This document shows positions 3,457-52,757 of a stretch of DNA of 64,000 nt, piece after piece. Position 1 is the first letter of the stretch, and every line of letters begins with the position of its first letter. The notes beneath the pieces are model-generated. The model was not told the origin of the DNA. It searched no databases and worked only from the letters and a program-made list of their open reading frames with translations. A program made the translations under genes and the position numbers. Source of the stretch: TPA_inf: Saccharomyces (Eukaryota); the NCBI GenBank assembly GCA_000146045.2, contig BK006934.2, forward strand, positions 64,001 to 128,000. The letters are read 5' to 3'.

Positions 3457-3640
3457 CAATGACTAGTATCTTCGTTAAAAACACTGTCCTGATACACACG
3501 CTTTAATCAGCACTGTAAACAAAATGCCACGTTCTGGCCTGATATGCTTTCTTGGCTAAGTGCAGATCGCTGTCTTGCTCCAATCCTCTTATTAATCCCT
3601 CTCATTGAGGTGGAAAAAAAAAAAATAAGAACGCCCGATT

Positions 3641-3648
3641 TTACCCGG
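3641..3648. promoter_or_regulatory. Exact Reb1 consensus site TTACCCGG, about 185 bp upstream of the OPI1 ATG
   Basis: Direct read ttacccgg; Reb1 consensus is TTACCCGG; position suits a nucleosome-free promoter element for OPI1. Confidence 0.45.
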
Positions 3649-3730
3649 TTGCATATGAAGATTATAAGGTGCCATCTATATACTAAAACGAACGTACCAT
3701 TTGTCTATCTATGAGATGTCTGCGTAAGCG

Positions 3731-5548
3731 TCAAACAATATATGCGTACTCTTCGTCGCTGACGGTCTTGTATCTGACCCAGGGGAAAGACTGGTACTGC
3801 AATTGTGGCTCTTCGACCTTCAAGTACTCAACTTTCAGGCCACTGCATGTACAGTACGGAATCTCGAAATCAATGTTGACCAACTTATCTCGAGGAGTAA
3901 CGTGGGAAGTTTGTTGGTCGTGCACTTGTCTATATAGTTCTTCCAGCCTGGGTCCCGTGCGCAAGGGCGGCGGATTCATTGAGGTTTTCATTTCTTCTTG
4001 CAGGCGGTCATATTCTTCCTGGTTGAAGAGGGGGAACTCTGCCACCATGGATGCACACGTATTTGGATCATCTTCGTCGCTGTTGTACTGTGAGCTCTTG
4101 TTTGTGCTATGTTCTCGGTGCCCCTTCATGGTTTGTATCTCCCAGAGGAGAAAATCGTCACTCAAGTTAAACACGACCTTGCCGATGTTTGCCTTGAATC
4201 TAATTTGCTTGCTGAGGTCTATTTTATATTCCTGGAAGACTTTTGTCAGGGGAATTCTCACGTTTAGCTTCGACGTTGAGTTGGTGGGTTTAAAATTTGT
4301 TTGAATTTTGGTTACAATTTGGATTTTAAACTTCTTCAGTTTAGGTTTGATTTCAAAATCTTTCAACCTCACCATCGGCGCATCCTTTACATGTCTCTTC
4401 AACTCGTATTGGCAAAGAACAAATTCGCCATCCGGCGGTATAAATTCGATTTCTCTTGCATCTGTGGCGGCCTGCAAACCAGCATCATCGTCACTATTCT
4501 TTTCTTCATCTTTTTCAATAGTGTTTATGGAATCTAGTGAAACACACTGATGAAAGCTGGAATTCGACATGAACTGGGGGTCCCTGTTCAGTATCTTGTT
4601 TATGGATATTTTCAGTTTGGGCATCCCTGATAAATAGCATCTGCACACAATCTCTCCATGTATCAGATTTTTCCTAATCACTCCTTTTTCAAAATCCATC
4701 AAGTACTGAACACGTTCAATAACATCAAGAAAGAACTCGTTTTTGGCGTAATGTATCCCCTTTGTTCTCCATGATATGGGCATTATAATCGTCTTCGCAA
4801 TATCGCCATTGATGTATAAATCATTACCGTCATTGGGGAGCTCGTCATTAGCGGCTTCTTTACCGGTATCATTCTTGTTCCTTAGTGTCTCCTTGACAGT
4901 TTCCACCACGTTTATGCCCCTATTTTCTTTATTGTTTACCATTATACTTTTTAATTTACTTTTGCCCACGCTTTTCCCTTTAGTGCCCTTTTTCTTCTTC
5001 CTTTTCTTCTTCTTATCCTTCCTCTTATTAGTATTGCTGTACTCGCTATCGCTATCGCTACCGCTACTACTACTGCTCTCTTCACCAGGGCTCCACTCCT
5101 CATTGTCTACTGTAACTCTTGGTACGTTGACCTTCACACGAATGTAGTCCTTGATGATACTTGGATCCGTCACTTGTACGATACCAAAGTCTATACATTC
5201 ATCAATCAACTCCAGGACAAGTAAGATGTTGTCCAGTATGACATTCTTAGTTAAGACCTCGATTTCAAAATATTTTTGTAAAAGATGATAAAATTGTTCC
5301 AAAAAGGCTAGTATAGTCATTAAGTCTATATTTGGTTTGTCTGTGGTATGTATCACTGAAACGAAATGCAGAAAGTCTCTCTTCAAATGTATAAAGAACC
5401 AATCGTTTTGGGAGAGAATTGGAGGCGACCCGTCATGATAACATTGTTTGAAACTTGAAAGAACCGACGATAGATTCGGTAGTGCTCTAATATTCTTCGA
5501 TACCAATGGCTCCAGATTTTCATCCAGGATAAAAAGGCTTGACGACAT
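3731..5548 (-). CDS. APM2: APM2 (YHL019C), AP-1-related adaptor mu-subunit homologue, 605 aa
   Basis: Full 605-aa ORF; the N-terminus has mu/sigma longin-like features (MSSSLFILDENLEPLVSKN). A C-terminal mu-homology domain is interrupted by a Ser/Asp then Lys/Arg-rich insertion (SSSSSGSDSDSEYSNTNKRKDKKKKRKKKKGTKGK). Confidence 0.88.
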   Translation of the reverse strand: MSSSLFILDENLEPLVSKNIRALPNLSSVLSSFKQCYHDGSPPILSQNDWFFIHLKRDFLHFVSVIHTTDKPNIDLMTILAFLEQFYHLLQKYFEIEVLTKNVILDNILLVLELIDECIDFGIVQVTDPSIIKDYIRVKVNVPRVTVDNEEWSPGEESSSSSGSDSDSEYSNTNKRKDKKKKRKKKKGTKGKSVGKSKLKSIMVNNKENRGINVVETVKETLRNKNDTGKEAANDELPNDGNDLYINGDIAKTIIMPISWRTKGIHYAKNEFFLDVIERVQYLMDFEKGVIRKNLIHGEIVCRCYLSGMPKLKISINKILNRDPQFMSNSSFHQCVSLDSINTIEKDEEKNSDDDAGLQAATDAREIEFIPPDGEFVLCQYELKRHVKDAPMVRLKDFEIKPKLKKFKIQIVTKIQTNFKPTNSTSKLNVRIPLTKVFQEYKIDLSKQIRFKANIGKVVFNLSDDFLLWEIQTMKGHREHSTNKSSQYNSDEDDPNTCASMVAEFPLFNQEEYDRLQEEMKTSMNPPPLRTGPRLEELYRQVHDQQTSHVTPRDKLVNIDFEIPYCTCSGLKVEYLKVEEPQLQYQSFPWVRYKTVSDEEYAYIV

Positions 5549-5707
5549 GCCTTTCCTTCCTGATTTCCTCTTTACTATTTTTGGGTCCCTTTATTTGCTT
5601 TTTGTCCAAGGCATTCTCAATTTTCCAATCTGGAATTTAAGCCCTTCCAGTTATAAAACAGTAAACACAACCTACCAAAAGCAGAAAGAAACCAAAGTAA
5701 GAATACA

Positions 5708-6070
5708 ATGCACAACAAGATTGTTAGAATCGCGTCCAGTGCACTCACAGGGGGCAAACTACTCGAGAAGCTAAAACCCTTGACCCGTTGGGAAGTTCAA
5801 TGGGACCCTAATAAGACCAAATGTTTGGGAATAACAAGAGAGGTAACATTCAAGGACTACGAAACCACATGGGCCTTTTTGACTCGTGTATCGATGAGAT
5901 CTCATCTATGGGGCCACCATCCCCTGATTCACACAAGTTACACCTGGGTCAAGCTGGAACTTCATACGCATGACATAGACCCGAAAGACGGGGCTCACAG
6001 CCAGCTTAGCGATATAGACGTCCGGATGGCCAAGAGAATAGATTCCTACATCGATGAGATGACAACTTGA
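5708..6070 (+). CDS. YHL018W, pterin-4a-carbinolamine dehydratase (PCD/DCoH)-family protein, 120 aa
   Basis: Contains the PCD signature region ...FKDYETTWAFLTRVSMRSHLWGHHPLIHTSYTWVKLELHTHD (E-x-x-W...HHP...W); the N-terminus looks like a mitochondrial targeting sequence. Confidence 0.8.
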   Translation: MHNKIVRIASSALTGGKLLEKLKPLTRWEVQWDPNKTKCLGITREVTFKDYETTWAFLTRVSMRSHLWGHHPLIHTSYTWVKLELHTHDIDPKDGAHSQLSDIDVRMAKRIDSYIDEMTT

Positions 6071-6275
6071 TAAGGCAGGGCAGGTCTAAAAGGCTATTGC
6101 TCTTTCCATTTTTTTTTTCCTATCGATTTTACTACTAGAAATTTTTGCTACCCATACCCATTCTCGCATTGCAACATGGAAAAACTGAAAATTGAAAAAA
6201 AAGGTATTGAAATTTCAACTGTATTGTGTAAATCATTTTTGGGCAAACTAGACACAATAACTAGCGAACAGAAAA

Positions 6276-7874
6276 ATGGATAGAACGTGGCTATTACTGA
6301 CGTGGCTGTTGCTACTCTGTGGGGTAGTTCAAGGGAACCAAGAAAGCATAAATCAAAAATATCACGATGTCTGTTCAGGGATGTATTCCAAGGAGGATTT
6401 CAATGGAAAAGTTGACCCCTATATATCGTTTACGTTGGAGGAATTGTCACTTGCTGATGAAGACGATGATGGCGAGGGGGTTAGTGTTGCTGTGTTTGAT
6501 TTCCAAGATTATGAGCATATTGGTGTGCGGTTACCAAATGGAGAAATTCAGTATATTTGCGATGACTACGCATTGGATTTGGGCCTCTGTGAGGATTCGT
6601 CGGAGGGGCAATTTATCATTCAAGAGACAGCCATCGATCCGTTCACCAGTAAGGAACATAAGCTAACGAGTCAGATTTTGACTTTCACTCAACAAGAATT
6701 GGGCACTAACGACAAGGTATACTCAATTAACAAAACTGGTTACTATTGTGTGACCACGTCATCTTTCATTTCTTCCAGTTCCAAGTTTAAGGCTACAGTG
6801 AATTTTAGGAACGCTTACGGTCAATTGGACGCTTCAGAGGCGTACAAGATGCCTATTTATGCCTTTTTGGCCGTCGCTTATGCCGTCTGTACATTAGTGT
6901 ACTCTTGGCTATGCTGGAAGCATAGACATGAGTTACTGCCTTTACAAAGGTACATTTTGGTATTTTGTATTTTCCTAACAGCTGATACTATTTTCGTCTG
7001 GATGTACTATATTATTGAGAACCAGAAGGGAAACTCCAGCGTCGCTCTTCATGTCTATATGGTTTTCATATCGATCTTTAGCGCCGGTAAGATGACTTTC
7101 ACGCTTCTCCTCGCCTTGCTGATATCTCTTGGATATGGTATAGTATATCCAAAACTGGACCGTACATTGCTAAGAAGATGTCAAATATTTGCGATATTTA
7201 CGTTTGCAGTGTGCGTTGCATTCCTGGTCCAAAAATATTCCCAGAATTCTGAGTCTTTATCCAATTTGATTTTGATTACTGCTATCCCCTTAGTATTATG
7301 TCTATTCGCTTTCTATTATTTGACACTGTCTTCAATGAACAAAACAATGACTTATTTGAGGGAACAAAACCAAGTGGTGAAATTAAACATGTACAGAAAA
7401 CTGATCATATTGTGTTATATTTCGTTGTTTATACTCTTCTTAGGCTTACTAGTCTCTACTTTTGCATACGTCGGTATGGACACTGTTGACATGATAGAAC
7501 AATATTGGAAAACAGAATTCCTCATCACAGATACTTGGCCTAGTTTCGTTTACTTCTTGGTCTTCGTCATTTTCGCATTCTTCTGGAGACCTACAAGTAC
7601 ATCATATTTACTAGCGTGCTCGCATCAATTACCAACTGACATGGAAAATGTATCAGAATTCGATTTAGATGACATAAATTCCTTGTCTGATGAGGCATTG
7701 CCTAATAGAGAGCCACGTAATGACTACCAGGAACACGATCACAATATGGATATTGATTTAGCATCCGATTTTGAAGAAGTGCCAAGTGTAAATGCAAATA
7801 CGAACGCAAATAATGACGTATTGTTCGACGTAGATTACGACAGAGATGCAAAAAATGATAGAAGTACTACATAA
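6276..7874 (+). CDS. YHL017W, multi-pass membrane protein (Ptm1 paralogue), 532 aa
   Basis: Signal peptide ([20 protein letters not shown]), lumenal domain, then 7 predicted TM helices and an acidic C-terminal tail; length and position match YHL017W. Confidence 0.82.
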
Positions 7875-8036
7875 ACGGACCAAATAACATAAATTTAGAA
7901 ATTTCCTTTTTTTTTTTTTTTTCCCCTTGACTTTCTTTTCTTTTATGTACCTATAATGAAAGACTATTTTATAATTAGAGCTATTTAAAAATTATTAATG
8001 AGGTTGATGAGTGGATAGAATATTATATTTTGAAAG

Positions 8037-10244
8037 CTAAATTATTTCATCAACTTGTCCGAAATGTGATGATTGTCTATGTGCTCTCGCACTAATTTGG
8101 CTTGTTACTACATGCAGATCTTGTGGGTTCGAATTTTGCCATTCCCTTAATTTATAAGTTTGACCAGATAGATCCCAGTAAAGGCCTCGCAAAGTGGTAT
8201 ATATACCATGCCTACCTTCCCAGAGTGGATAAATACAAACGGCAAACGCACTGAAAAAAAGCCAGATGATCATCACAACAACCCAACCGGTAAAGAATTT
8301 TTTACTGAAGATATATTTGGAACCATACATGGGCATGGGCCAAACTACCAAAAATGCCAAAGCGAAAAAAACACATAGGAAGTATGCAATTTTTAAACCA
8401 CGTGCTAGTTCTCTTTGTTCTTCGTCTAATTCATTTTGTAACTGTGTGTCATCTTCTTGAAAAATGGCATTACTTATTACAACACCAAGGTTAGGCTCAA
8501 TCAATTTTTCATTATTTACTCTAACATCGTTTTTTTCACTATCTGAGACCAGAGAATTTGTTTCTTCTTCTTGTTCCTTATCGTTAGCTTCAGCATCGTA
8601 AAGCTGGATATCAGGGTCAGCCTGAACTAACTCTGCAGTTTCGTCAACTCTAGTAATATCTTTCATTTTCTCCCAGTCAAAATTTTGTGGCTTAAACACA
8701 TACGTTAAAATAGGAATAAAAATGGCTGGTGATAGCAAAGCCACCAAGTTACCTGTTAACATTGGATAATCCATGAACGTAGTATCCACGGTCAATTCTT
8801 TATAAAGGGATTTGGTACAGACAAGCCATGACATTATAGCCAGTCCTGTGCCCAAAATAGGCGACACTACAGCGGCCACCAAATTCATGTCTTTGGAACA
8901 TAAGGTCAAAACGACAGGTAATACTGCACTACTAATAATTATACCCATCATTTCATAGATATAACCCATAGAAATACCACCATAGTATAAACCAACCGAA
9001 AATCCACTCATGGCAAGACCAAAAAAGATACAAGCAACGTGTGATGTGTAAATCAATTTCTTACCGCTTGCACGAGGATCAATATATTCTCTATAGATAT
9101 CGTAAGTGAAAACAGATGAAACGGCAATTAGTTCAGCAGACATAGCAGATGTGACGGCCATGAAAATCATTAGCAGCGATGCCACAGCACCCCCCTTACC
9201 CATGATAGCAATTGCAGCTGCCGGCAAGACTAACCCAGAATTTGCCTGGAACGAAGTAAGTGGATCAGGATAGGTGGGGAAGTTCGGAGACGTTTCCACC
9301 GCAAGACATGCTAATCCCATGGTCAATGAAATCAAAGAAGGTACTGCAAACCATGCTAACCCACCGATGGCATATGCTTTCAAACTCGCTGCGGGACTAG
9401 CAGAAATCGCTTTATTCCAATAACCATTATCAAGGAAAACGGTGCCGAAATTTCCAATCAGGTTAATAATTAATAAAATACCAGCGGATTTGGATGTCAT
9501 GGTCATATATTCACCCTGATAGTTACCGTCTACTGGATGCCTCTTGGCGGCTTCACGAACTAAGTCATAAACTTTTCCCGGTGAGCCTAAAACATCACTA
9601 GTCGCATAAACTTTAAAGGCAAATACGAGGACAATGATGATAATGACACATGTGTGCATATAGTCCGTTAAGAAAGTTGCTTTAATCCCACCAAATAGAG
9701 TATAAACAACAACACCCACAGGCAGTAAAAAACATGATGCGATAGTGTTCATCCCGGTTAAATCACTAAAGACAGCAGAACCTGAAGTTAAAAGCATTGA
9801 AGTGACTAAAATATTCGTCGCGATGGCATAAAACAAGTAGCAACCATGGCCGATCTTACCATATCTTGTTCTCACTAATTCTAAATATGTGTGCGCATTG
9901 GGAGCCATTTGCTTGGTTTTAATTGCCAAAATTGCGAATGCAATAATTTGGAAGCATGCGCCAGCAGCGTACGCATAACCGCCAAATATACCGTCTGCAT
10001 ATTCCTTTGTTGACGACGTTAACAATGTAGAACACCAGATCCAACTAGAAACCACGGCTGCAGCCACTAAGCCGGTTTTTACAGATCTACCGGCGGTGGT
10101 GAATTCTTCTGCTGTGATGATTTCCTTTTGATAACGTTTCAGTAAATAAGTGGTCAAAACCATCATTCCTGCAAATACGGCCCCTAGGCCCAATACAATA
10201 GCGTACCCAGCGCCTTGAGGTAGCGGAGGTTTAAATTCTCCCAT
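8037..10244 (-). CDS. DUR3: DUR3 (YHL016C), plasma-membrane urea/polyamine transporter, sodium:solute symporter family, 735 aa
   Basis: 735-aa polytopic ORF with SSS-family character (MGEFKPPLPQGAGYAIVLGLGAVFAGMMV...); position between YHL017W and RPS20. Confidence 0.9.
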   Translation of the reverse strand: MGEFKPPLPQGAGYAIVLGLGAVFAGMMVLTTYLLKRYQKEIITAEEFTTAGRSVKTGLVAAAVVSSWIWCSTLLTSSTKEYADGIFGGYAYAAGACFQIIAFAILAIKTKQMAPNAHTYLELVRTRYGKIGHGCYLFYAIATNILVTSMLLTSGSAVFSDLTGMNTIASCFLLPVGVVVYTLFGGIKATFLTDYMHTCVIIIIVLVFAFKVYATSDVLGSPGKVYDLVREAAKRHPVDGNYQGEYMTMTSKSAGILLIINLIGNFGTVFLDNGYWNKAISASPAASLKAYAIGGLAWFAVPSLISLTMGLACLAVETSPNFPTYPDPLTSFQANSGLVLPAAAIAIMGKGGAVASLLMIFMAVTSAMSAELIAVSSVFTYDIYREYIDPRASGKKLIYTSHVACIFFGLAMSGFSVGLYYGGISMGYIYEMMGIIISSAVLPVVLTLCSKDMNLVAAVVSPILGTGLAIMSWLVCTKSLYKELTVDTTFMDYPMLTGNLVALLSPAIFIPILTYVFKPQNFDWEKMKDITRVDETAELVQADPDIQLYDAEANDKEQEEETNSLVSDSEKNDVRVNNEKLIEPNLGVVISNAIFQEDDTQLQNELDEEQRELARGLKIAYFLCVFFALAFLVVWPMPMYGSKYIFSKKFFTGWVVVMIIWLFFSAFAVCIYPLWEGRHGIYTTLRGLYWDLSGQTYKLREWQNSNPQDLHVVTSQISARAHRQSSHFGQVDEII

Positions 10245-11777: not shown

Positions 11778-11971
11778 GCTGGTTCTAACTGGAAATAATT
11801 TCCATTAGATTCCTCTTTTTCTCGTCCATTAACCAAAATATATTATTGAATTCAGCGGTTCCTTTTTTCTCATTTTCGCATATAGCTGCACTATTAGAAT
11901 CAGCCCACTCTAGGTAAACACAGTTCCTCGATATACCTCTGTCTTACTATCAGTGGTTAAACCTTATGCAA

Positions 11972-11976
<5 letters not shown>

Positions 11977-12004
<28 letters not shown>
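11977..12004. repeat. (AT)14 dinucleotide microsatellite in the convergent RPS20/YLF2 3' intergenic region
   Basis: Direct read of an uninterrupted atat... run. Confidence 0.9.
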
Positions 12005-20067: not shown

Positions 20068-21060
20068 TCATTCATTCAAAGTAGCTTCCTCCACTAGAAA
20101 ATCGATTAAACTTCTTGGATACGCAGGTCCATGGGTATGACAACATTCTTGTCCTTGCAATTTGCTCATAACGTATGTCACATCAAAGTCCCTCTCTTCT
20201 GAAAGTTTGTAAAGATACTCCCAGGTGGCGGGGACTGTTAGTACATGTCTTCCTGCTTCGTCAGTATACTGGGTATTTCGCTTCATAATTTCATTATCCT
20301 TTAGCGAATACTTGCCTTTGTGATTCAGTTTGCTTTCCAGGACCATAGAGGTAAAAAATTCATCTTTCGTTGGGAAAGAATATTTGTAGTTGGTATCATC
20401 TTCTATGTCCTTTGAAAAATTTTCATTACCACTCCGCAGTAGCAGTCTGTTCTCTGCGTTGATTTCAGTATTTGCCTTTCTTAGTTCCTCAATTTCTTTC
20501 AATAAACTTTGGCGGTTCCTTTCACTTTCTAACAATTTATCTTGTAATTCTTTCATTCTGGCTTCTTTTCTCTCTCTGAAGGCTTTTTGGGCGGCTCTGT
20601 TTTGAGCCTTTTTCTTTGCCTTAGAGTCATCTGGAACATTCTCATTATGAGCAACTGAGGGACTCCTCGAACTTGGAGATATACCATTATTTTTAGAAAA
20701 ATAATTTGTATTACTATAACTATCATTATCATTATTATTGTTATCTGCCATAACATAGGTAGAGTAGTCGCCTGAAATAGGGGTTAGTTGAATTGCTTGA
20801 AGATCACTACCCTTAGGGAAAGATATGTTGTTCTGTAATAGCAAATCATTATTTGATCTGTCAAGGTTCAAAGCAGGACACTGGTCTTCCAAAATTGGGA
20901 AGGGTGCTGTTTGCTCGCTCAATAGGTCTGGTTGTTGTTTTATACATTTGCTATCTTCTTGGAATAGACTATTTCTGATACAACAATCCTCCTCTTGGCA
21001 TTGAGGGTTAATAAATTTCATGAATCCGCTGGTATTATCATCCATATTAGAAGGCGTCAT
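20068..21060 (-). CDS. YAP3: YAP3 (YHL009C), bZIP transcription factor of the Yap family, 330 aa
   Basis: Yap-type basic region KAQNRAAQKAFRERKEARMKELQDKL. The track ORF (347 aa) begins 17 codons upstream; I place the start at MTPSNMDD to give 330 aa. Confidence 0.82.
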   Translation of the reverse strand: MTPSNMDDNTSGFMKFINPQCQEEDCCIRNSLFQEDSKCIKQQPDLLSEQTAPFPILEDQCPALNLDRSNNDLLLQNNISFPKGSDLQAIQLTPISGDYSTYVMADNNNNDNDSYSNTNYFSKNNGISPSSRSPSVAHNENVPDDSKAKKKAQNRAAQKAFRERKEARMKELQDKLLESERNRQSLLKEIEELRKANTEINAENRLLLRSGNENFSKDIEDDTNYKYSFPTKDEFFTSMVLESKLNHKGKYSLKDNEIMKRNTQYTDEAGRHVLTVPATWEYLYKLSEERDFDVTYVMSKLQGQECCHTHGPAYPRSLIDFLVEEATLNE

Positions 21061-21297
21061 AACAATTGCTTCAGCCTTATTCTTCGTTAGTTTATACTGG
21101 AAGTAAAGCAAACACCTACTGCCCCTTTTATCGAAATGATAAACAAATAAGAAAGCTCAGAGGGCCTCCGGTAATATTCAAATCGATCTGTTTTATAATG
21201 CTTATTGAATAATAATGCCGTTGCTGTACTCTTAACATAAAGCTACGAAAATCCACTATACATTTTTCTAAAGAAAAAAAAAAAATTCAAAAAAAAT

Positions 21298-21371
21298 TGA
21301 TTTCGCCCAGGATCGAACTGGGGACGTTCTGCGTGTTAAGCAGATGCCATAACCGACTAGACCACGAAACC
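21298..21371 (-). tRNA. tV(AAC): tRNA-Val (anticodon AAC), 74 nt, intronless
   Basis: Minus-strand read GGTTTCGTGGTCTAGTCGGTTATGGCATCTGCTTAACACGCAGAACGTCCCCAGTTCGATCCTGGGCGAAATCA folds as a cloverleaf (D-loop AGTCGGTTA, anticodon loop TTAACAC, T-arm GTTCGATCC); internal A/B boxes present. Confidence 0.9.
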
Positions 21372-21387
21372 AAATTCTTATTGATTA

Positions 21388-21451
21388 TGTTGTATTACGG
21401 GCTCGAGTAATACCGGAGTGTCTTGACAATCCTAATACAAACAGTCTTAGG
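21388..21451. mobile_element. Possible internally deleted sigma (Ty3 LTR)-like relic beginning 17 bp upstream of the tRNA-Val 5' end
   Basis: Starts TGTTGTAT (the sigma terminal octamer) exactly 16 nt from the tRNA 5' end, which is the Ty3 integration window. A roughly 64-bp stretch ends in an imperfect inverted copy, AATACAAACA. The internal sequence does not match my memory of sigma, so this is tentative. Confidence 0.3.
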
Positions 21452-21538
21452 GAAGTAACCAGTTGTCAAAACAGTTTATCAGATTAATTCACGGAATGTT
21501 ACTTATCTTATATATATTATATAAAATATGAATCATAC

Positions 21539-21909
21539 TGTTGGAACGAGAGTAATTGATAGTGACATGAGTTGCTATGGTAACAATCTAATGCTTACAT
21601 CGTATATTAATGTACAACTCGTATACGTTTAAGTGTGATTGCGCCTATTGCAGAAGGAATGTTAAACGAGAAGCTCAGACAATACTGAAGCGGTGTTAAA
21701 GACCTATTAGTTGAACATGTTATGGTAGGTACATATATGAGGAATATGAGTCGTCACATCAATGTATAGTAACTACCGGAATCACTATTATATTGGTCAT
21801 AATTAATATGACCAATCGGCGTGTGTTTTATATACCTCTCTTATTTAGTATAAGAAGATCAGTACTCACTTCTTCATTAATACTAATTTTTTACCTCTAA
21901 TTATCAACA
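21539..21909 (+). repeat. Ty4 5' LTR (tau), 371 bp
   Basis: TGTTG...CAACA termini; 366/371 identical to the 3' LTR. Confidence 0.92.
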
Positions 21910-23150
21910 TGGCGACCCCAGTGAGGGATGAAACAAGAAATGTTATTGACGACAACATTTCTGCGCGGATTCAATCGAAAGTCAAAACAAATGATACTGT
22001 CAGACAGACGCCATCATCATTAAGAAAAGTTTCTATTAAAGATGAACAGGTGAAACAATATCAAAGAAACTTAAATAGGTTTAAAACCATACTAAATGGT
22101 TTAAAGGCAGAAGAGGAAAAACTTTCTGAGACTGATGATATTCAGATGCTAGCTGAAAAATTATTAAAACTCGGAGAAACCATTGACAAGGTTGAGAATA
22201 GGATTGTGGATCTAGTTGAAAAGATACAATTATTGGAAACAAACGAGAACAATAATATATTACATGAACATATAGATGCTACAGGGACTTACTATTTATT
22301 CGATACGTTAACTTCAACCAACAAAAGATTCTACCCTAAGGATTGTGTTTTTGATTATAGGACTAATAATGTCGAGAACATTCCTATTCTCTTAAACAAT
22401 TTTAAAAAATTCATCAAGAAATATCAATTTGATGATGTCTTTGAAAATGATATCATAGAAATCGATCCTCGTGAAAATGAAATCTTGTGCAAGATAATCA
22501 AAGAAGGACTCGGTGAAAGTTTAGATATCATGAACACAAATACAACTGACATTTTTAGGATAATCGATGGTTTAAAAAACAAATATAGAAGTTTACATGG
22601 TAGAGATGTCAGAATTAGAGCCTGGGAAAAGGTTTTGGTTGATACAACATGTAGAAATTCCGCATTGTTAATGAATAAACTTCAAAAGTTGGTACTAATG
22701 GAAAAATGGATTTTTTCTAAATGCTGCCAAGATTGTCCTAATCTAAAGGATTACCTACAAGAAGCTATCATGGGAACCTTACATGAATCCTTAAGAAATT
22801 CTGTGAAACAACGTTTGTACAACATTCCACATAACGTAGGAATTAATCACGAAGAATTTCTAATCAATACTGTTATTGAAACAGTAATTGATTTGAGCCC
22901 AATTGCAGACGATCAAATAGAAAATAGCTGCATGTATTGCAAATCTGTTTTCCATTGCTCAATTAACTGCAAAAAGAAACCAAATAGGGAACTTAGGCCT
23001 GACTCGACCAATTTCTCAAAAACCTATTATCTACAAGGTGCACAGAGACAACAACAACTTAAGTCCAGTGCAAAACGAACAAAAGTCTTGGAACAAGACA
23101 CAAAAAAAGTCAAACAAAGTGTACAACAGCAAAAAACTGGTAATTATTGA
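21909..23150 (+). CDS. TYA: Ty4 TYA (Gag), 413 aa (YHL009W-A-like)
   Basis: ORF opens with the last A of the LTR (ATGGCGACC...); a C-terminal CCHC-like zinc-knuckle region (CMYCKSVFHCSINC). Confidence 0.88.
   Translation: MATPVRDETRNVIDDNISARIQSKVKTNDTVRQTPSSLRKVSIKDEQVKQYQRNLNRFKTILNGLKAEEEKLSETDDIQMLAEKLLKLGETIDKVENRIVDLVEKIQLLETNENNNILHEHIDATGTYYLFDTLTSTNKRFYPKDCVFDYRTNNVENIPILLNNFKKFIKKYQFDDVFENDIIEIDPRENEILCKIIKEGLGESLDIMNTNTTDIFRIIDGLKNKYRSLHGRDVRIRAWEKVLVDTTCRNSALLMNKLQKLVLMEKWIFSKCCQDCPNLKDYLQEAIMGTLHESLRNSVKQRLYNIPHNVGINHEEFLINTVIETVIDLSPIADDQIENSCMYCKSVFHCSINCKKKPNRELRPDSTNFSKTYYLQGAQRQQQLKSSAKRTKVLEQDTKKVKQSVQQQKTGNY
21910..21927 (+). other. Ty4 minus-strand primer-binding site TGGCGACCCCAGTGAGGG, complementary to the 3' 18 nt of tRNA-Asn(GUU) including CCA; it overlaps the TYA start codon
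   Basis: 18/18 match to the reverse complement of the tRNA-Asn 3' end ...CCCTCACTGGGGTCGCCA as I recall it; immediately 3' of the LTR. Confidence 0.75.
22992..22998 (+). promoter_or_regulatory. Programmed +1 ribosomal frameshift heptamer CTT-AGG-C linking TYA to TYB
   Basis: CTT AGG are in the TYA zero frame (codons L-R of ...NRELRPDS...) and GGC is in the +1 frame, which stays open to 27318. A fusion of 362 + 1440 = 1802 aa matches the Ty4 Gag-Pol size I recall. Same heptamer as Ty1/Ty2. Confidence 0.8.
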
Positions 23151-26100
23151 TACCGGTTCCGGCGTAAACATTACCAATGACAAAACCTTACTGCATAATT
23201 ACGAAGACAGTAATCGCAGTACACGATTTTTTGGTATTGGGAAAAACAGTTCAGTGTCTGTTAAAGGGTATGGCTATATAAAAATCAAGAATGGTCACAA
23301 CAATACTGACAATAAGTGTTTATTGACTTACTATGTACCGGAAGAAGAATCCACTATAATCAGCTGTTATGACTTAGCCAAGAAAACCAAAATGGTTTTA
23401 AGTCGAAAATATACCAGATTGGGAAACAAAATCATAAAAATTAAAACCAAGATAGTTAATGGTGTCATTCACGTAAAAATGAACGAGTTAATTGAACGTC
23501 CTTCCGATGATTCAAAAATAAATGCAATAAAACCTACTTCTTCTCCTGGATTTAAACTAAATAAAAGGTCTATTACCTTGGAAGATGCTCATAAAAGAAT
23601 GGGCCATACAGGAATTCAACAAATTGAAAATTCCATAAAACATAATCATTATGAAGAATCCCTTGACTTAATCAAAGAACCAAATGAATTTTGGTGTCAA
23701 ACCTGTAAAATCTCTAAAGCCACGAAAAGAAATCATTATACCGGGTCTATGAATAATCATAGTACTGATCATGAACCAGGATCATCATGGTGCATGGATA
23801 TATTTGGCCCTGTATCAAGTTCAAACGCGGACACTAAAAGGTACATGCTTATTATGGTGGATAACAACACGAGATATTGCATGACCTCCACACACTTCAA
23901 TAAGAATGCTGAAACTATTTTAGCTCAAATCAGAAAGAATATTCAGTACGTGGAAACACAATTTGACAGGAAAGTCAGAGAAATTAATTCAGACAGAGGT
24001 ACTGAATTCACAAATGATCAGATAGAAGAATATTTTATTTCAAAAGGAATACATCACATACTTACTTCTACACAAGATCATGCTGCTAATGGAAGAGCAG
24101 AAAGATACATCAGAACAATAGTAACTGATGCAACAACACTCCTAAGACAAAGTAACTTAAGAGTAAAATTTTGGGAATACGCAGTAACTTCTGCTACCAA
24201 TATAAGAAATTGCCTGGAACACAAAAGTACAGGTAAACTACCATTGAAGGCAATCTCACGTCAACCTGTTACAGTGAGATTAATGTCATTCTTACCATTT
24301 GGCGAAAAAGGAATAATTTGGAATCATAATCACAAAAAATTGAAACCATCTGGACTTCCTTCTATAATTCTATGCAAAGATCCAAATAGTTATGGATACA
24401 AATTCTTTATACCATCCAAAAATAAAATTGTCACATCTGATAATTATACAATTCCCAACTATACGATGGACGGTAGAGTAAGAAATACTCAGAATATTTA
24501 CAAGAGTCATCAATTCAGTTCACATAATGATAATGAAGAAGATCAAATCGAAACGGTCACAAACTTATGTGAAGCTTTGGAAAACTACGAAGATGATAAT
24601 AAACCAATTACTCGCCTGGAAGATTTGTTCACAGAGGAAGAGTTATCTCAAATAGACTCAAACGCAAAATACCCATCTCCTAGTAATAACCTAGAAGGGG
24701 ACTTGGATTACGTATTTTCTGATGTTGAGGAATCTGGAGATTATGACGTTGAATCTGAACTTTCAACGACAAATACTTCAATCTCAACTGATAAAAACAA
24801 AATTTTGTCAAACAAGGATTTTAATTCAGAACTTGCATCGACTGAAATATCCATCAGTGAAATCGATAAGAAAGGATTAATAAATACAAGTCATATTGAT
24901 GAAGATAAGTATGATGAAAAAGTCCACAGAATTCCATCGATTATACAAGAGAAACTGGTAGGAAGTAAAAATACTATTAAAATCAATGACGAAAACAGAA
25001 TCTCCGACAGAATTCGTAGTAAAAATATTGGGAGTATCTTAAACACTGGACTCAGTAGATGTGTAGATATCACCGATGAATCTATTACTAACAAAGATGA
25101 GTCAATGCACAACGCAAAACCCGAACTAATTCAGGAGCAGTTCAATAAAACAAATCATGAAACTTCGTTTCCTAAAGAAGGGAGCATTGGAACAAATGTA
25201 AAATTCCGAAATACAGACAATGAGATTTCTTTAAAAACAGGCGATACGAGTTTACCAATAAAAACTTTAGAAAGCATTAACAATCACCATAGTAATGATT
25301 ATTCCACAAACAAAGTTGAAAAGTTTGAGAAGGAAAATCATCATCCGCCCCCGATTGAGGACATTGTGGATATGAGTGATCAAACTGATATGGAATCAAA
25401 CTGTCAGGATGGTAATAACTTAAAAGAATTAAAAGTCACCGATAAAAATGTACCAACTGACAATGGAACAAATGTGTCACCAAGGTTGGAACAAAATATT
25501 GAAGCATCTGGATCACCAGTACAAACAGTTAATAAAAGTGCCTTCTTAAACAAAGAATTCAGTTCTTTGAACATGAAAAGAAAACGGAAAAGACACGATA
25601 AAAACAATAGTCTAACAAGCTATGAATTAGAAAGAGATAAGAAGCGTTCAAAAAGGAATCGAGTGAAATTAATTCCAGATAATATGGAAACAGTTTCAGC
25701 ACAAAAAATTAGAGCCATATATTATAATGAAGCTATTTCAAAAAATCCTGACCTCAAAGAAAAACATGAATACAAACAGGCATATCATAAAGAATTACAG
25801 AATTTAAAAGATATGAAGGTATTTGATGTCGATGTGAAGTACAGTAGATCAGAAATCCCTGATAATTTAATAGTACCCACCAACACGATATTCACAAAGA
25901 AAAGAAATGGGATTTATAAGGCTAGGATAGTCTGCAGAGGTGATACTCAGTCACCAGACACTTACAGTGTAATAACTACAGAATCTTTAAATCACAATCA
26001 TATTAAGATATTCTTAATGATTGCAAACAACAGAAATATGTTTATGAAGACCCTGGATATCAATCATGCATTCCTATATGCTAAATTGGAAGAAGAAATA

Positions 26101-27318
26101 TACATCCCACATCCGCATGATAGGAGATGTGTAGTCAAGCTAAATAAGGCGTTATATGGTCTAAAACAGAGTCCTAAAGAATGGAATGATCATCTAAGAC
26201 AATACTTGAATGGAATTGGACTGAAAGATAACTCTTATACTCCGGGATTATACCAAACCGAGGATAAAAATCTAATGATTGCAGTCTATGTTGATGACTG
26301 CGTAATTGCGGCAAGCAATGAACAGAGATTGGATGAATTCATAAACAAATTGAAAAGTAATTTTGAACTGAAAATTACAGGAACATTAATAGATGATGTA
26401 CTCGATACAGATATATTAGGAATGGATCTAGTATACAACAAAAGACTTGGTACTATCGATTTAACATTAAAATCATTCATAAATAGAATGGATAAAAAAT
26501 ACAACGAGGAATTGAAAAAGATTAGAAAAAGTTCAATTCCGCATATGTCAACTTATAAAATAGATCCTAAGAAAGACGTACTGCAAATGTCAGAAGAAGA
26601 GTTTAGACAAGGTGTTCTAAAGCTACAACAATTACTAGGTGAACTAAACTATGTCAGACACAAATGCAGATACGACATTAATTTTGCTGTTAAGAAAGTG
26701 GCTAGACTAGTAAATTACCCACATGAAAGAGTCTTTTATATGATTTACAAAATAATCCAGTACTTGGTTCGGTATAAAGATATTGGAATACACTATGACC
26801 GAGACTGTAATAAAGACAAGAAGGTTATTGCTATAACTGATGCATCAGTTGGATCAGAATATGATGCTCAATCAAGGATTGGAGTTATATTATGGTACGG
26901 TATGAATATTTTTAATGTTTATTCTAACAAGAGCACAAACAGATGTGTATCATCAACAGAAGCAGAGCTTCATGCCATTTATGAAGGCTATGCAGACTCA
27001 GAAACGTTGAAGGTAACATTAAAGGAGCTAGGAGAAGGAGACAATAATGACATTGTCATGATCACTGACTCAAAGCCAGCCATTCAAGGATTAAATCGCA
27101 GCTATCAACAACCAAAAGAGAAATTCACTTGGATAAAAACTGAAATAATAAAAGAAAAAATTAAAGAGAAGAGTATAAAACTGTTAAAAATTACCGGCAA
27201 AGGTAATATTGCTGATTTACTAACAAAACCAGTATCAGCATCTGATTTTAAAAGATTTATACAAGTATTAAAAAATAAAATAACATCACAGGATATTTTG
27301 GCCTCAACAGACTATTGA
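22996..27318 (+). CDS. TYB: Ty4 TYB (Pol), expressed as a TYA-TYB fusion after the +1 frameshift: protease, integrase, reverse transcriptase, RNase H
   Basis: Protease DTGS (VIIDTGSGVNI); integrase HHCC zinc finger and DDE core (HKRMGHTGIQ...CQTCKISKA; DIFGP...D...E); reverse-transcriptase YVDD box (MIAVYVDDCVIAAS); RNase H (ITDASVGS...). The track's 23038 start is a GTG-start artefact; the frame is open from 22996. Confidence 0.88.
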   Translation, partial: GLTRPISQKPIIYKVHRDNNNLSPVQNEQKSWNKTQKKSNKVYNSKKLVIIDTGSGVNITNDKTLLHNYEDSNRSTRFFGIGKNSSVSVKGYGYIKIKNGHNNTDNKCLLTYYVPEEESTIISCYDLAKKTKMVLSRKYTRLGNKIIKIKTKIVNGVIHVKMNELIERPSDDSKINAIKPTSSPGFKLNKRSITLEDAHKRMGHTGIQQIENSIKHNHYEESLDLIKEPNEFWCQTCKISKATKRNHYTGSMNNHSTDHEPGSSWCMDIFGPVSSSNADTKRYMLIMVDNNTRYCMTSTHFNKNAETILAQIRKNIQYVETQFDRKVREINSDRGTEFTNDQIEEYFISKGIHHILTSTQDHAANGRAERYIRTIVTDATTLLRQSNLRVKFWEYAVTSATNIRNCLEHKSTGKLPLKAISRQPVTVRLMSFLPFGEKGIIWNHNHKKLKPSGLPSIILCKDPNSYGYKFFIPSKNKIVTSDNYTIPNYTMDGRVRNTQNIYKSHQFSSHNDNEEDQIETVTNLCEALENYEDDNKPITRLEDLFTEEELSQIDSNAKYPSPSNNLEGDLDYVFSDVEESGDYDVESELSTTNTSISTDKNKILSNKDFNSELASTEISISEIDKKGLINTSHIDEDKYDEKVHRIPSIIQEKLVGSKNTIKINDENRISDRIRSKNIGSILNTGLSRCVDITDESITNKDESMHNAKPELIQEQFNKTNHETSFPKEGSIGTNVKFRNTDNEISLKTGDTSLPIKTLESINNHHSNDYSTNKVEKFEKENHHPPPIEDIVDMSDQTDMESNCQDGNNLKELKVTDKNVPTDNGTNVSPRLEQNIEASGSPVQTVNKSAFLNKEFSSLNMKRKRKRHDKNNSLTSYELERDKKRSKRNRVKLIPDNMETVSAQKIRAIYYNEAISKNPDLKEKHEYKQAYHKELQNLKDMKVFDVDVKYSRSEIPDNLIVPTNTIFTKKRNGIYKARIVCRGDTQSPDTYSVITTESLNHNHIKIFLMIANNRNMFMKTLDINHAFLYAKLEEEIYIPHPHDRRCVVKLNKALYGLKQSPKEWNDHLRQYLNGIGLKDNSYTPGLYQTEDKNLMIAVYVDDCVIAASNEQRLDEFINKLKSNFELKITGTLIDDVLDTDILGMDLVYNKRLGTIDLTLKSFINRMDKKYNEELKKIRKSSIPHMSTYKIDPKKDVLQMSEEEFRQGVLKLQQLLGELNYVRHKCRYDINFAVKKVARLVNYPHERVFYMIYKIIQYLVRYKDIGIHYDRDCNKDKKVIAITDASVGSEYDAQSRIGVILWYGMNIFNVYSNKSTNRCVSSTEAELHAIYEGYADSETLKVTLKELGEGDNNDIVMITDSKPAIQGLNRSYQQPKEKFTWIKTEIIKEKIKEKSIKLLKITGKGNIADLLTKPVSASDFKRFIQVLKNKITSQDILASTDY

Positions 27319-27390
27319 TAATTAATTAATGAAGTTCTAAACACACAATGAATATCTGTTGAAGTACAATAATATATCTTTAAGGGAGCA

Positions 27391-27761
27391 TGTTGGAACG
27401 AGAGTAATTAATAGTGACATGAGTTGCTATGGTAACAATCTAATGCTTACATCGTATATTAATGTACAACTCGTATACGTTTAAGTGTGATTGCGCCTAT
27501 TGCAGAAGGAATGTTAAACGAGAAGCTCAGACAATACTGAAGCTGTGTTAAAGACCTATTAGTTGAACATGATATGGTAGGTACATATATGAGGAATATG
27601 AGTCGTCACATCAATGTATAGTAACTACCGGAACCACTATTATATTGGTCATGATTAATATGACCAATCGGCGTGTGTTTTATATACCTCTCTTATTTAG
27701 TATAAGAAGATCAGTACTCACTTCTTCATTAATACTAATTTTTTACCTCTAATTATCAACA
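27391..27761 (+). repeat. Ty4 3' LTR (tau), 371 bp; a purine-rich tract AAGGGAG lies immediately upstream (polypurine-tract candidate, 27382..27388)
   Basis: Differs from the 5' LTR at 5 positions (about 1.35%). Confidence 0.92.
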
Positions 27762-27766
27762 CATAC

Positions 27767-28099
27767 TGTAGAGTGGGTGAATTTTGAGATAATTGTTGGG
27801 ATTCCATTTTTAGTAAGGCAATAATATTAGGTATGTAGAATATACTAGAAGTTCTCCTCGAGGATTTAGGAATCCATAAAAGGGAATCTGCAATTCTACA
27901 CAATTCTATAAATATTATTATCATCGTTTTATATGTTAATATTCATTGATCCTATTACATTATCAATCCTTGCGTTTCAGCTTCCACTAATTTAGATGAC
28001 TATTTCTCATCATTTGCGTCATCTTCTAACACCGTATATGATAATATACTAGTAACGTAAATACTAGTTAGTAGATGATAGTTGATTTTTATTCCAACA
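27767..28099 (-). mobile_element. Solo delta (Ty1/Ty2 LTR), inverted, directly abutting the Ty4 right-hand target-site duplication
   Basis: Reverse complement reads TGTTGGAATAAAAATCAACTATCATCTACTAACTAGTATTTACGTTACTAGTATATTATCATATACGGTGTTAGAAGATGACGCAAATGATGAGAAATAGTCATCTAAATTAGTGGAAGCTGAAACGCAAGGATTGATAATGTAATAGGATCAATGAATA..., which is a typical delta. No matching 5-bp flanks. Confidence 0.85.
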
Positions 28100-28110
28100 T
28101 ATATGATAGC

Positions 28111-28127
28111 TGATTTTTATTCCAACA
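28111..28127 (-). repeat. Orphan 17-bp duplicate of the delta terminus (TGATTTTTATTCCAACA) 11 bp beyond the solo delta
   Basis: Direct read: ...gttgatttttattccaaca tatatgatagc tgatttttattccaaca... Confidence 0.6.
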
Positions 28128-28626
28128 ATTTATACGCTTGGGTGGATATCTAGGCAAGAAGGGCCTTGTGTTTTCTCAATATTATGGTACATCACAAATA
28201 AAATTGAGCAGCGATATGTTCCGAACACATGCCGTTACCTGATGGAATGAGAAATAGGTCTATTCTATCGATCTTTATCTATATTACTGGTATATTATGA
28301 TGTATGACGTAAAAAGATGTAGCAAAGAATGGCAAAAGCTATCAAAAATTTAATGAAACCTAAAACGCAAGGATTGACAGTGATGTAATAATGAACGAGG
28401 GCATATTGAAGTTTAAGATTTAGTTTAGTGACACTGCTTAGGCAAAATACTATTCTAAAACAGATATGATTTTCGTTCACGATGCAAAAGGTTTATATAA
28501 GTTATTTAATAGTAAATAAAAAAACATGCAGACGCATAAGTCACCATTGACTCATGCTTATTATTATATCCAATGATTTATTTTTTTTTGTTTTCGTTGA
28601 TATCGCGGGCATCTTAACTCTTCTGG

Positions 28627-30510
28627 TCATAACTGGGGGGATGTGTGACGATTATAAAAGTTTTTGGGCTCAGTAATTTTTTGCCGCCTTGTAGTGCTGT
28701 CCAGGTCCTCTTTATTTAGGTTAACAATTCCGGCTACATTATTTGCTGTAATTCTAGCATTGCGGTTTATGCCAACAGCAGCCATTTTTTTGAGTAAGTC
28801 ATCTGGGCTTTCTGCATCCTTGCTTGAGTGAAATTCTTTCGACACCGCCCTAAACAGTCCGCCCAACGTGGTACTGTTTGCTTTACGTAATGAATGAGCA
28901 TCGTCTGTGTATGCTGGAGACGAGGCGGGAGCGTTATGAGGAAAAGTATCCTGTGTCGTTCTAGGTAATATCGGAGGCGTCACTTCCCTAGAAGATACAT
29001 TTTCAGCAAGATGGGTAATTATTTTTTCTAGCCTGGTACCTGGTTTATTTTCCAAAATATTATAACCACCATTTTTTTCGTACTCCTTTTGCTCACGATC
29101 TTCTTCAGTTTTCACTAGCCTTAACAGGTTATCATCCTCCTTTTTTTTATTCTTCACGTACGCGGAGTTATGTGTTTCGGCTCTTCTTAAGAAAAGCTCA
29201 TTTTCCTTAGGGTCGTAAGTTGCATCTTCAATCGTTTTTTCTCTTTCTAGCGGTTCCCCCATTCCCCTTACAGGAAAGACACCAGGCGGCGATCTCAAAC
29301 TGTGGCGCTTGTTAATACGGTGCCTGTTAATAGATTTGATCGAGTGATTGTGAGGCAGATTGTGAGGCAACCCCAGGTGTGGAGATCTTGTCGTAGAGTT
29401 ACTTTTAGGTATGAATTGTACGGGTTCTCCCAAGTCCGATTCCATTGTAACATTGTCGGAAGTTATAACTGATGAAGGTATGGATCGAAGCGAATTTAGA
29501 CTTCTGCCGGTGAAATAGCTCGAGTTATCGTGATTTGTATTATAAATGCTTGCAAAGCCCTTTTCAGTAAGGTTTTCAAGATCTTCACCGGTTTCAGTTG
29601 CATCATCGTCACACTCATTTTTTTGTATTCTTACAACTCTTGAATCCATATTCAGTTCTGGTTGCTCATCTCTTGCTTCGTATTCTGGTAAAGATAATCT
29701 CTTTCTATCACGTTCCACAACCACCAAATGTAAGTAGAAGGGAACGACTGCACTAAAAAAGAGTCCTCCAACGATGTTACCTAAAGAAGCGGGAATTAGT
29801 AGTTTCCATATATATTTACCCACTGAAACATTTGCACCGTTAAGCATTGCAATGAAAGATGCAGACATATCTCCGACTACATGTGTAAATCCGATACCAA
29901 TAAAGTCAATGATAGGGAATGACATTAGAATAAACTTCACATGAATAGGTTTTGCCATTAACTGTAAATATATGGCTAAACAAACAAAAAAATTGCACGC
30001 TATTCCTTTTAAAAAGGTTTGGACGAATGAATATGAAACTTTTTGTTCTATGATTTGCCGTGAGCCTATTATCCAAAGCTTCTGAGAACTAATACCAGAA
30101 AGATGACCAAAAAGATATGAAACAAAAAGTGAGCCAGCAATATTACCTAACCAACTGACAACCCACGAAATCATCAAATCATAGATAGTTACTGCTTTTC
30201 TCAGAACTCCAACGGAGAAAAATAGGATATTAGAGTTGAAGAGGTCAGCACCCATCATTACTACATAGAATAGTCCCATGGCGAAATTAACACCAGTAAT
30301 AAGATTCACAATACCCGGGTTTCGTGCGACTATGTCAGGATCTTCGGAATATACCGCTACCAATAGGAACGAACCACTACTAAACAGAACGCCACCAAGT
30401 ATGGAATTTATTAGCAATGTATCTAGTTGCAGTCTTGCTTTCTTCATTGCAGTGGCCACCACCGCTAATGCAGTTTCATGTGGTGTAAGATAGTTTGAGT
30501 CGTCAACCAT
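28627..30510 (-). CDS. YHL008C, formate/nitrite transporter (FNT)-family membrane protein with a long hydrophilic C-terminal extension, about 627 aa
   Basis: N-terminal roughly 290 aa with 6 TM helices and FNT-like character (…GADLFNSNILFF…, …FIGIGFTHVVGDMS…); C-terminal roughly 340 aa low-complexity and Ser/Pro/Asn-rich. I place the start at MVDDSNYL (the track ORF starts 4 codons earlier). Confidence 0.8.
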   Translation of the reverse strand: MVDDSNYLTPHETALAVVATAMKKARLQLDTLLINSILGGVLFSSGSFLLVAVYSEDPDIVARNPGIVNLITGVNFAMGLFYVVMMGADLFNSNILFFSVGVLRKAVTIYDLMISWVVSWLGNIAGSLFVSYLFGHLSGISSQKLWIIGSRQIIEQKVSYSFVQTFLKGIACNFFVCLAIYLQLMAKPIHVKFILMSFPIIDFIGIGFTHVVGDMSASFIAMLNGANVSVGKYIWKLLIPASLGNIVGGLFFSAVVPFYLHLVVVERDRKRLSLPEYEARDEQPELNMDSRVVRIQKNECDDDATETGEDLENLTEKGFASIYNTNHDNSSYFTGRSLNSLRSIPSSVITSDNVTMESDLGEPVQFIPKSNSTTRSPHLGLPHNLPHNHSIKSINRHRINKRHSLRSPPGVFPVRGMGEPLEREKTIEDATYDPKENELFLRRAETHNSAYVKNKKKEDDNLLRLVKTEEDREQKEYEKNGGYNILENKPGTRLEKIITHLAENVSSREVTPPILPRTTQDTFPHNAPASSPAYTDDAHSLRKANSTTLGGLFRAVSKEFHSSKDAESPDDLLKKMAAVGINRNARITANNVAGIVNLNKEDLDSTTRRQKITEPKNFYNRHTSPQL

Positions 30511-41585: not shown

Positions 41586-41703
41586 TTTCTAAGTTCGGAA
41601 CACAAAACCCAATGTTTAATCATTTTTAATAAACAATTTAGTATATATATTATTTTAATTTTATTAAATTAATTAAAATTAAAAGAATTATTAGTCATGT
41701 GAT
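41586..41703 (-). other. CEN8: Point centromere (CEN8-like): CDEIII 41586..41610, CDEII 41611..41695, CDEI 41696..41703; CDEI-to-CDEIII runs on the minus strand
   Basis: CDEI: plus-strand catgtgat is ATCACATG on the minus strand, matching RTCACRTG. CDEII: 85 bp with 6 G/C, about 93% AT. CDEIII (minus-strand read): GTTTTGTGTTCCGAACTTAGAAAA with the essential central CCG and flanking TG/AAAA. It lies exactly at the YHL/YHR boundary between RPL14B and OSH7. Confidence 0.85.
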
Positions 41704-47530: not shown

Positions 47531-47556
47531 TATATATATATATATATATATATATA
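47531..47556. repeat. (TA)13 dinucleotide microsatellite in the TCD1 promoter / NEM1 3' region
   Basis: Direct read tatatata... Confidence 0.9.
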
Positions 47557-47753
47557 CTGTTTAGATCAAGTATATCTTCCTGCTAAATAATTAATATGCT
47601 CGTATGTAGAAAACAAAAAAGAGGTCTTTTCTCTTTTTTCTCCCGTTACTTTTTTCCCTGAATGCAATAACCTTTCCATTAAATGAGCAGCAATGGATAG
47701 GCGATTTATCACCTAAAATTCTCATCTTTTTTGGAAGGACACAATAACAATTG

Positions 47754-52752: not shown

Positions 52753-52757
52753 CTATT

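Follow-up and report, generated by a model that had tools for sequence, protein, structure and literature searches.

The tRNA-Val(AAC) gene tV(AAC)H on chromosome VIII of Saccharomyces cerevisiae is, in its S288C-type allele, very probably preceded by a landing pad for retrotransposons directed to genes of RNA polymerase III (Pol III), and its present arrangement would have arisen through the series of events proposed below. The window, that is, the whole stretch of 64,000 nucleotides (nt) analysed here, corresponds to S. cerevisiae S288C-type chromosome VIII, because the Ty4 Gag, YAP3 and YHL008C proteins encoded in it match their S288C namesakes exactly. Several independent insertions of long terminal repeat (LTR) retrotransposons were found less than about 1 kb upstream of this Pol III gene. 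Family tests against authentic elements, together with the exact match of the Ty4 Gag, support the Pol III-targeted landing pad with Ty3-, Ty4- and Ty1/Ty2-derived sequences described in the initial annotation, and all elements listed there were recovered in place or within a few bases. Its span, ending at 28127, covers these elements, and the hotspot reaches further, over an ancient sigma-like remnant and the old delta YHLWdelta2, which had both been missed (Table 1).

Table 1. Coordinates of the tRNA genes, Ty-derived elements and associated motifs in the window
Feature	Position	Strand	Basis
T8 run (read on the minus strand), 1 base past the tRNA 3' end	21289..21296	-	read from sequence
tRNA-Val(AAC) gene tV(AAC)H, Pol III gene presumed to attract the insertions	21298..21371	-	ARAGORN, Rfam
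16-nt spacer from the tRNA 5' end to sigma, ending in GATTA (Ty3 target site)	21372..21387	.	sequence
YHLCsigma1, 3' (U5-side) 151 nt of a Ty3 LTR	21388..21538	-	alignment to authentic Ty3 LTR
Ty4 target-site duplication CATAC, left copy (last 5 nt of the sigma piece)	21534..21538	.	sequence
Ty4 5' LTR (tau, YHLWtau1), 371 bp, TGTTGG...ATCAACA	21539..21909	+	LTR alignment
TYA4 (gag) open reading frame (ORF), YHL009W-A, 413 amino acids	21909-23147	+	ORF list, protein match
Putative primer-binding site, 18 nt directly after the 5' LTR	21910..21927	+	sequence
TYB4 (pol) reading frame, +1 relative to gag, 1,465 codons	22921..27318	+	Pfam, frame check
CTTAGGC heptamer, TYA frame, inside the gag/pol overlap	22992..22998	+	script
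Purine-rich tract abutting the 3' LTR, putative polypurine tract	27382..27390	+	sequence; function inferred
Ty4 3' LTR (YHLWtau2), 371 bp	27391..27761	+	LTR alignment
Ty4 target-site duplication CATAC, right copy	27762..27766	.	sequence
YHLCdelta1, full-length inverted solo delta, 333 bp, TG...CA ends	27767..28099	-	alignment to authentic Ty1 LTRs
28-bp stub, repeating nt 1-28 of a delta, in head-to-tail order with delta1	28100..28127	-	repeat search, alignment
Ancient inverted sigma-like LTR remnant, U3 side	28128..28239	-	strain comparison
YHLWdelta2, old diverged 5' half of a delta	28240..28390	+	alignment to Ty1 LTR
tRNA-Thr(AGU) gene of a second Pol III landing pad (52107-53059)	52107-52179	-	
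YHRCdelta3, inverted solo delta, duplication CTATT, 83% to Ty1 LTR	52421-52752	-	
Degenerate older delta by tRNA-Thr(AGU), 66%	52772-53059		

Structure of the Ty cluster upstream of tV(AAC)H

The gene tV(AAC)H is intact and conserved. ARAGORN placed it at 21297-21372 on the minus strand, and the Rfam model RF00005 (E-value mode, 171 nt) was covered in full at 21298-21371 with 53.1 bits. Rfam run at gathering thresholds on 21000-28700 gave no hit at all, which reflects a filter miss and does not count against the gene. The gene was identical at 74/74 positions across the fetched assemblies that were aligned, with one mismatch in L017 as the sole exception (L numbers designate fetched records). 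The T8 run that follows it would be the expected Pol III terminator, by analogy with known Pol III termination.

The sigma piece YHLCsigma1 was compared with the end of an authentic S. cerevisiae Ty3 from strain VL3 (L011), fetched by a gag query. In this reference a tRNA gene is followed by 16 nt, a 341-bp LTR (L011:291-631), a primer site of the TGGTAGCG type and a gag gene with a Ty3_capsid domain. Reverse-complemented, the piece corresponds to positions 192-341 of that LTR, with 98% identity over 152 aligned positions (E = 4e-56), one mismatch and one 2-bp indel, and it starts 16 nt from the tRNA 5' end, in the position of about 16-19 nt expected of Ty3. A complete sigma of about 340 bp with a 5-bp duplication on both sides was not found at this place, where only positions 192-341 are present, the distal flank is gone and the 190 nt of the U3 side (sigma nt 1-190) are lacking. 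Judged by this alignment, the piece is a young but truncated Ty3 LTR, neither an intact solo LTR nor a degenerate relic, and it is considered young because, though truncated, it has not diverged. The initial annotation was thus right to assign this sigma-like sequence to Ty3, but not to call it a relic. The LTR of a S. kudriavzevii-type Ty3-like element in the hybrid VIN7 (L010) was 70% identical to the sigma piece; the gag of L010 and an S. kudriavzevii protein were each 86% identical to the S. cerevisiae Gag3 sequence used as query.

The Ty4 element, YHLWTy4-1, is complete and measures 6,223 bp. Its two LTRs, found by direct-repeat search and pairwise alignment, are identical at 366 of 371 positions, and the five mismatches are located at 21558, 21692, 21720, 21782 and 21801 and at their counterparts in the 3' LTR. 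The tau LTRs with TG...CA ends enclose an internal region of about 5.5 kb, and together with the 5-bp duplication, the Ty4 Gag and a +1 pol frame in copia order they identify the element as a member of the Ty4 family. The distance from the tRNA 5' end to the 5' LTR, estimated at about 170 bp in the initial annotation, was measured as 167 nt. Directly behind the 5' LTR lies the putative primer-binding site TGGCGACCCCAGTGAGGG, which would be complementary to the 3' end of tRNA-Asn; the fetched loci yielded no tRNA-Asn sequence, and a literature search found no paper linking the Ty4 primer-binding site to this tRNA. The purine-rich tract AAGGGAGCA at the other end may serve as polypurine tract.

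The gag ORF of Ty4 opens on the final base of the 5' LTR, and its product matches NP_058134.1 ('Transposon Ty4-H Gag polyprotein') exactly. The pol frame, which contains no internal stop codon, overlaps gag by 230 nt, and this overlap harbours the only copy of CTTAGGC in the element. By analogy with Ty1, this heptamer is likely the +1 frameshift site of Ty4. Pfam domains were detected in the order Pol_BBD, rve (5e-17), SH3_retrovirus and RVT_2 (4e-33), which is the copia arrangement: protease-like, integrase and reverse transcriptase follow one another, and the integrase (rve, residues 245-346) precedes the reverse transcriptase (RVT_2, residues 945-1156). Since LTRs, gag and pol are intact and the putative CTTAGGC frameshift site is present, this copy looks potentially functional. 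The sequence of YHLWTy4-1 in SGD served as the Ty4 BLAST query in another study.

For the inverted delta, the reference was an authentic Ty1 (L016:6707-12624), whose 335-bp LTRs are 99.4% alike and flank a gag with TYA domain and a pol with rve domain; contigs carrying a 'Ty1-OR' gag were short metagenome pieces that offered no usable Ty1 LTR reference, and L016 was used instead. YHLCdelta1 aligned end to end with both L016 LTRs at 96% identity (E about 1e-122). The alignment to LTRs proposed in the initial annotation as a check on the flanking elements is therefore positive for the sigma piece as well as for delta1, in both cases with LTRs from elements that carry Ty3 or Ty1 coding regions. 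As also noted there, delta1 begins immediately after the right CATAC, with zero spacer. A 5-bp target-site duplication of its own was not found around delta1, whose flanks are CATAC and TATAT (AATTT beyond the stub), and its absence indicates a product of recombination or deletion. According to Carr 2012 (PMC3511429), delta1 is of Ty2 type, belongs to the active clade and is present in S288c only among the 22 strains scored.

Adjacent to delta1 lies the 28-bp stub, identical to delta1 at 26 of 28 positions. The orphan delta terminus of 17 bp in the initial annotation is real and ends at 28127, but its length is 28 bp, of which only the last 17 bp are exact. A pattern made from the 28-nt delta terminus had three matches in the window and none in 100 shuffles.

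The outer part of the cluster consists of older sequences. The ancient sigma-like remnant, unannotated in the general feature format file of Carr, shares 97-98% identity with the corresponding stretch of the common allele that lacks the young insertions (the empty allele), in which the ancient LTR starts right after the 16-nt spacer. The relic of about 280 bp in the empty allele agrees with reverse-complemented sigma at 73% of paired positions (z = 22.8 against shuffles), and gave no signal with sigma in the other orientation, nor with tau or delta. In the window, 28128-28169 aligns to positions 197-240 of reverse-complemented sigma (z = 5.7). YHLWdelta2 is 72% identical to positions 2-148 of the Ty1 LTR (E = 2e-17) and was present in every natural assembly examined.

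The locus in other strains

For the strain survey, assemblies were fetched by exact look-ups of three variants of Yap3p, and the DNA between YHL008C and YAP3 was compared. Two independent assemblies with S288C-type Yap3p (L002 and L005) match the arrangement of the window. A third one (L004) possesses a single tau, which agrees with the 5' LTR at position 20 and with the 3' LTR at the remaining four diagnostic positions. Stretches of 100 N interrupt L001 and L006, and neither was used to infer structure; in L006, the sequence past tau may be a chimeric join through a repeat. The exact 28-mer of the stub was found in only five assemblies, which are those sharing the S288C-type allele (L001, L002 and L004-L006). 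No fetched assembly with the S288C-type YAP3 protein carries the delta without tau; alleles with delta present and Ty4 absent were what the initial annotation had proposed to look for.

Seventeen of the fetched loci with the other two Yap3p variants harbour the empty allele, composed of the tRNA gene, the same 16-nt spacer, the ancient sigma-like relic and delta2. Compared with it, the S288C-type allele has lost 172 bp of the ancient relic, and these occur nowhere in the window; sigma nt 1-190 are missing as well, and delta1 and the stub fill the exact site of this 362-bp loss. Traces of recombination had been suspected in the initial annotation, and a deletion or recombination event is indeed evident, because delta1 lacks a duplication and both the 172 bp and sigma nt 1-190 are lost.

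Three further strains carry insertions of their own. L018 possesses a different plus-strand delta 124 nt upstream, with the duplication CTTCT, and L024 a full Ty1 inside delta2, with the duplication CAAAG. The same GATTA site is occupied in L026 (GCA_030036015.1, reverse complement of 2737-10000) by a complete sigma in opposite orientation, with GATTA on both sides; a full-length Ty1 is nested in it at position 73, with the duplication GAAAC. The sigma of L026 is an independent Ty3 insertion at the same nucleotide as the sigma of the window. Over all strains, the stretch of about 400 bp has received at least nine insertion events, namely two old relics, three or four events in the S288C-type allele and four in L018, L024 and L026.

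One record, L003, was considered as a natural deletion of the tRNA gene and the cluster and was rejected. At L003:9493-10000, the equivalent of 21298-28390 of the window is replaced by a 34-bp filler, with the right boundary at the end of YHLWdelta2. The filler is loxPsym and the record is the engineered synthetic chromosome VIII, synVIII (CP134974), in the design of which all tRNA genes and associated LTRs were removed.

Proposed history of the S288C-type allele

TFIIIB directs the integrase of Ty3 to the start site of Pol III transcription, and Ty1, Ty2 and Ty4 insert into the phased nucleosomes within roughly 1 kb upstream of Pol III genes (reviewed in Cheung et al. 2018, PMC5911963). In each phased nucleosome upstream of a tRNA gene, Ty1 has two sharply bounded integration sites, a preference shared by Ty2 and Ty4 (PMC5911963). 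In the history proposed here, a sigma-like LTR at the start site and a delta further upstream would have been acquired long ago; both have since degenerated, and the delta, YHLWdelta2, has become fixed in the species. A new Ty3 would then have inserted at the same GATTA site, in minus orientation, in the S288C-type lineage. A Ty1/Ty2-type element may have followed into this young sigma, and another one in or beside an older delta located in the relic at CGGGT|ATTTA. Recombination between LTRs would have deleted the interval with sigma nt 1-190 and the 172 bp, leaving a solo delta and the 28-bp stub of another delta. Finally, Ty4 would have integrated exactly at the junction of sigma and delta, with duplication of CATAC. 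Its arrival as the last element is the simplest assumption, because the duplication is perfect and the terminal 5 nt of the sigma piece are linked by it with the first nucleotide of delta1.

Several observations weigh against this history. No intermediate allele, either with sigma and delta and without Ty4 or with a complete minus-strand sigma, was found among the fetched assemblies, and consequently the order of events was not directly observed; we infer the sequence of the steps from the new Ty3 onwards and the exact route to the delta-plus-stub arrangement. The single tau of L004 may be a solo LTR that truly arose by recombination, or it may reflect a collapse in a short-read assembly, and its variant pattern fits both. 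Whichever route gave rise to delta1, its parent and Ty4 must have hit one and the same 5-bp target, at 167 nt from the tRNA gene, a coincidence in the absence of sharp nucleosomal hotspots. The sharp nucleosomal sites of Ty1, Ty2 and Ty4 could account for it, and we tentatively entertain, as a minor possibility, that Ty4 uses the same base-pair-sharp hotspots as Ty1/Ty2 or, alternatively, is attracted to existing LTR ends. On chromosome X, too, the Ty4 target is only 9 nt away from the matching end of a near-identical Ty2-type delta. Given how rare the allele is, five differences between the Ty4 LTRs (1.35%) are many. Other Ty4 copies share several of the variant bases of tau1 and tau2 (Carr 2012 alignments), which suggests gene conversion among Ty4 copies rather than point mutation after insertion, and LTR divergence is therefore no clean clock here. 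De novo transposition of Ty4 has not been observed (Carr 2012, PMC3511429).

Among the alternatives, a single aberrant event could have produced the delta, the 28-bp stub and the 362-bp loss together, through capture of Ty1/Ty2 complementary DNA (cDNA) at a double-strand break or through integration of the cDNA ends at two sites. We regard this as rather unlikely. In its favour, it would require fewer insertions than a nested series; both ends of the delta are intact to the last nucleotide, yet no target duplication flanks it; and the loss is bounded exactly by the delta. The stub differs from delta1 at two of 28 positions, which fits a different, older delta copy better, and nested insertions with clean duplications at the same locus in other strains indicate that multi-step histories are common here. 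That the Ty4 alone is real, and that the sigma and delta beside it reflect chance similarity or an assembly artefact, is next to impossible. No support was found for this reading, given the 98% and 96% identities of sigma and delta to LTRs flanking authentic Ty3 and Ty1 coding regions, the same arrangement in the independent assemblies L002 and L005, and the re-sequencing of a part of it (Thierry 2015, PMC4317496).

Joint copying of Ty4 and the inverted delta from the Ty4 locus on chromosome X (YJLWTy4-1, YJLWsigma1, YJLCdelta3), by ectopic recombination or segmental duplication, was likewise considered. The layout of that locus is parallel: L037:7399-14478 contains tRNA-Ala, a sigma fragment, a delta, a Ty4 flanked by TATCA and, 9 nt on, an inverted delta flanked by ATTAT. 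Similar to the window, a sigma fragment lies by the tRNA gene, the Ty4 target is 159 nt (about 160) from the tRNA gene, and an inverted Ty2-type solo delta is found within 9 nt of the 3' side of Ty4. This inverted delta is 97.9% identical to delta1 and is, like it, of Ty2 type (Carr 2012, PMC3511429). However, the Ty4 duplications differ (CATAC here, TATCA on chromosome X), the delta of chromosome X has its own ATTAT and stands 9 nt beyond the right TATCA, whereas delta1 abuts the duplication, and the flanking sequences are unrelated. Unlike in the window, Ty4 and delta are nested there in an older plus-strand delta, and sigma has the other orientation. Joint copying is therefore very improbable and was rejected, since different duplications and flanks denote independent insertions.

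Neighbouring genes, a second landing pad and the published record

The ORF at 20068-21060 (minus strand) is an exact match to S288C Yap3p, and that at 28630-30510 (minus strand) to the 'uncharacterized transporter YHL008C'. The initial annotation had suggested that the cluster could perturb the expression of both genes, which is unsupported. The YAP3 promoter is separated from the cluster by the tRNA gene, and YHL008C faces the cluster with its 3' end. Transcriptome sequencing (RNA-seq) of synVIII, in which the whole block is gone, detected few expression changes, naming FLO5, PFS1, the CUP1 region and YHR073W-A, and YAP3 and YHL008C are not named. Indirect as the support from synVIII is, it argues against a strong expression effect of the cluster in rich medium.

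A second Pol III landing pad was found in the window at the tRNA-Thr(AGU) gene. Similar to tV(AAC)H, this minus-strand tRNA gene has solo deltas upstream, at 240-880 nt, one of them young with a clean duplication and the other degenerate. Unlike at tV(AAC)H, only Ty1/Ty2-type LTRs are present, without sigma or a full-length element. YHRCdelta3 is polymorphic, being present in 13/26 strains (Carr 2012, PMC3511429).

Two additional observations concern other parts of the window. The only match to a point-centromere pattern lies at 41594-41702 on the minus strand, with TCACATG, about 88 nt of AT-rich sequence and TTCCGAA (mean of 0.04 in shuffles), and its sequence is consistent with CEN8. The (TA)n microsatellite tracts at 11958-12001 and 47531-47574, reported as an inverted repeat 35.5 kb apart, are probably a case of simple-sequence similarity only.

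The locus is already known in detail; its main parts have been named, genotyped across strains and used as rearrangement junctions. It is identical to the SGD/S288C features tV(AAC)H, YHLCsigma1, YHLWTy4-1 (YHL009W-A/B), YHLCdelta1 and YHLWdelta2, with no essential difference, and for every piece the coordinates of Carr 2012 (Files S2 and S3) equal the window coordinate plus 63,996. Carr, Bensasson and Bergman 2012 (PMC3511429) list YHLCsigma1 as TY3, 151 bp, in 1/22 strains, YHLWTy4-1 in 3/24, YHLCdelta1 in 1/22 and YHLWdelta2 as fixed (26/26). Thierry 2015 (PMC4317496) described the Ty4 as inserted beside an inverted solo sigma, named YHLWtau1 and YHLWtau2, verified a G/A difference between them by re-sequencing, and located amplification and deletion junctions in YHLWtau2 and YHLCdelta1. 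A chromosome-rearrangement junction was also mapped to YHLCdelta1 (Chan and Kolodner 2011, PMC3102749). The annotation files read lack three details: the 28-bp stub, the final 10 nt of delta1 (27767-27776) and the sigma-like remnant.

As a discovery the locus carries little weight, and it behaves as the known rules of Pol III-directed Ty integration predict. The analysis adds a few small details, namely the ancient sigma-like remnant missing from the annotation, the 28-bp stub and the 362-bp loss, which refine the history and leave the picture unchanged. The repeats at this locus are junctions of chromosome rearrangements observed experimentally. The locus is, moreover, a clean teaching example, in which one 400-bp stretch has received at least nine separate events, with Ty3 inserted twice at the same nucleotide in opposite orientations.

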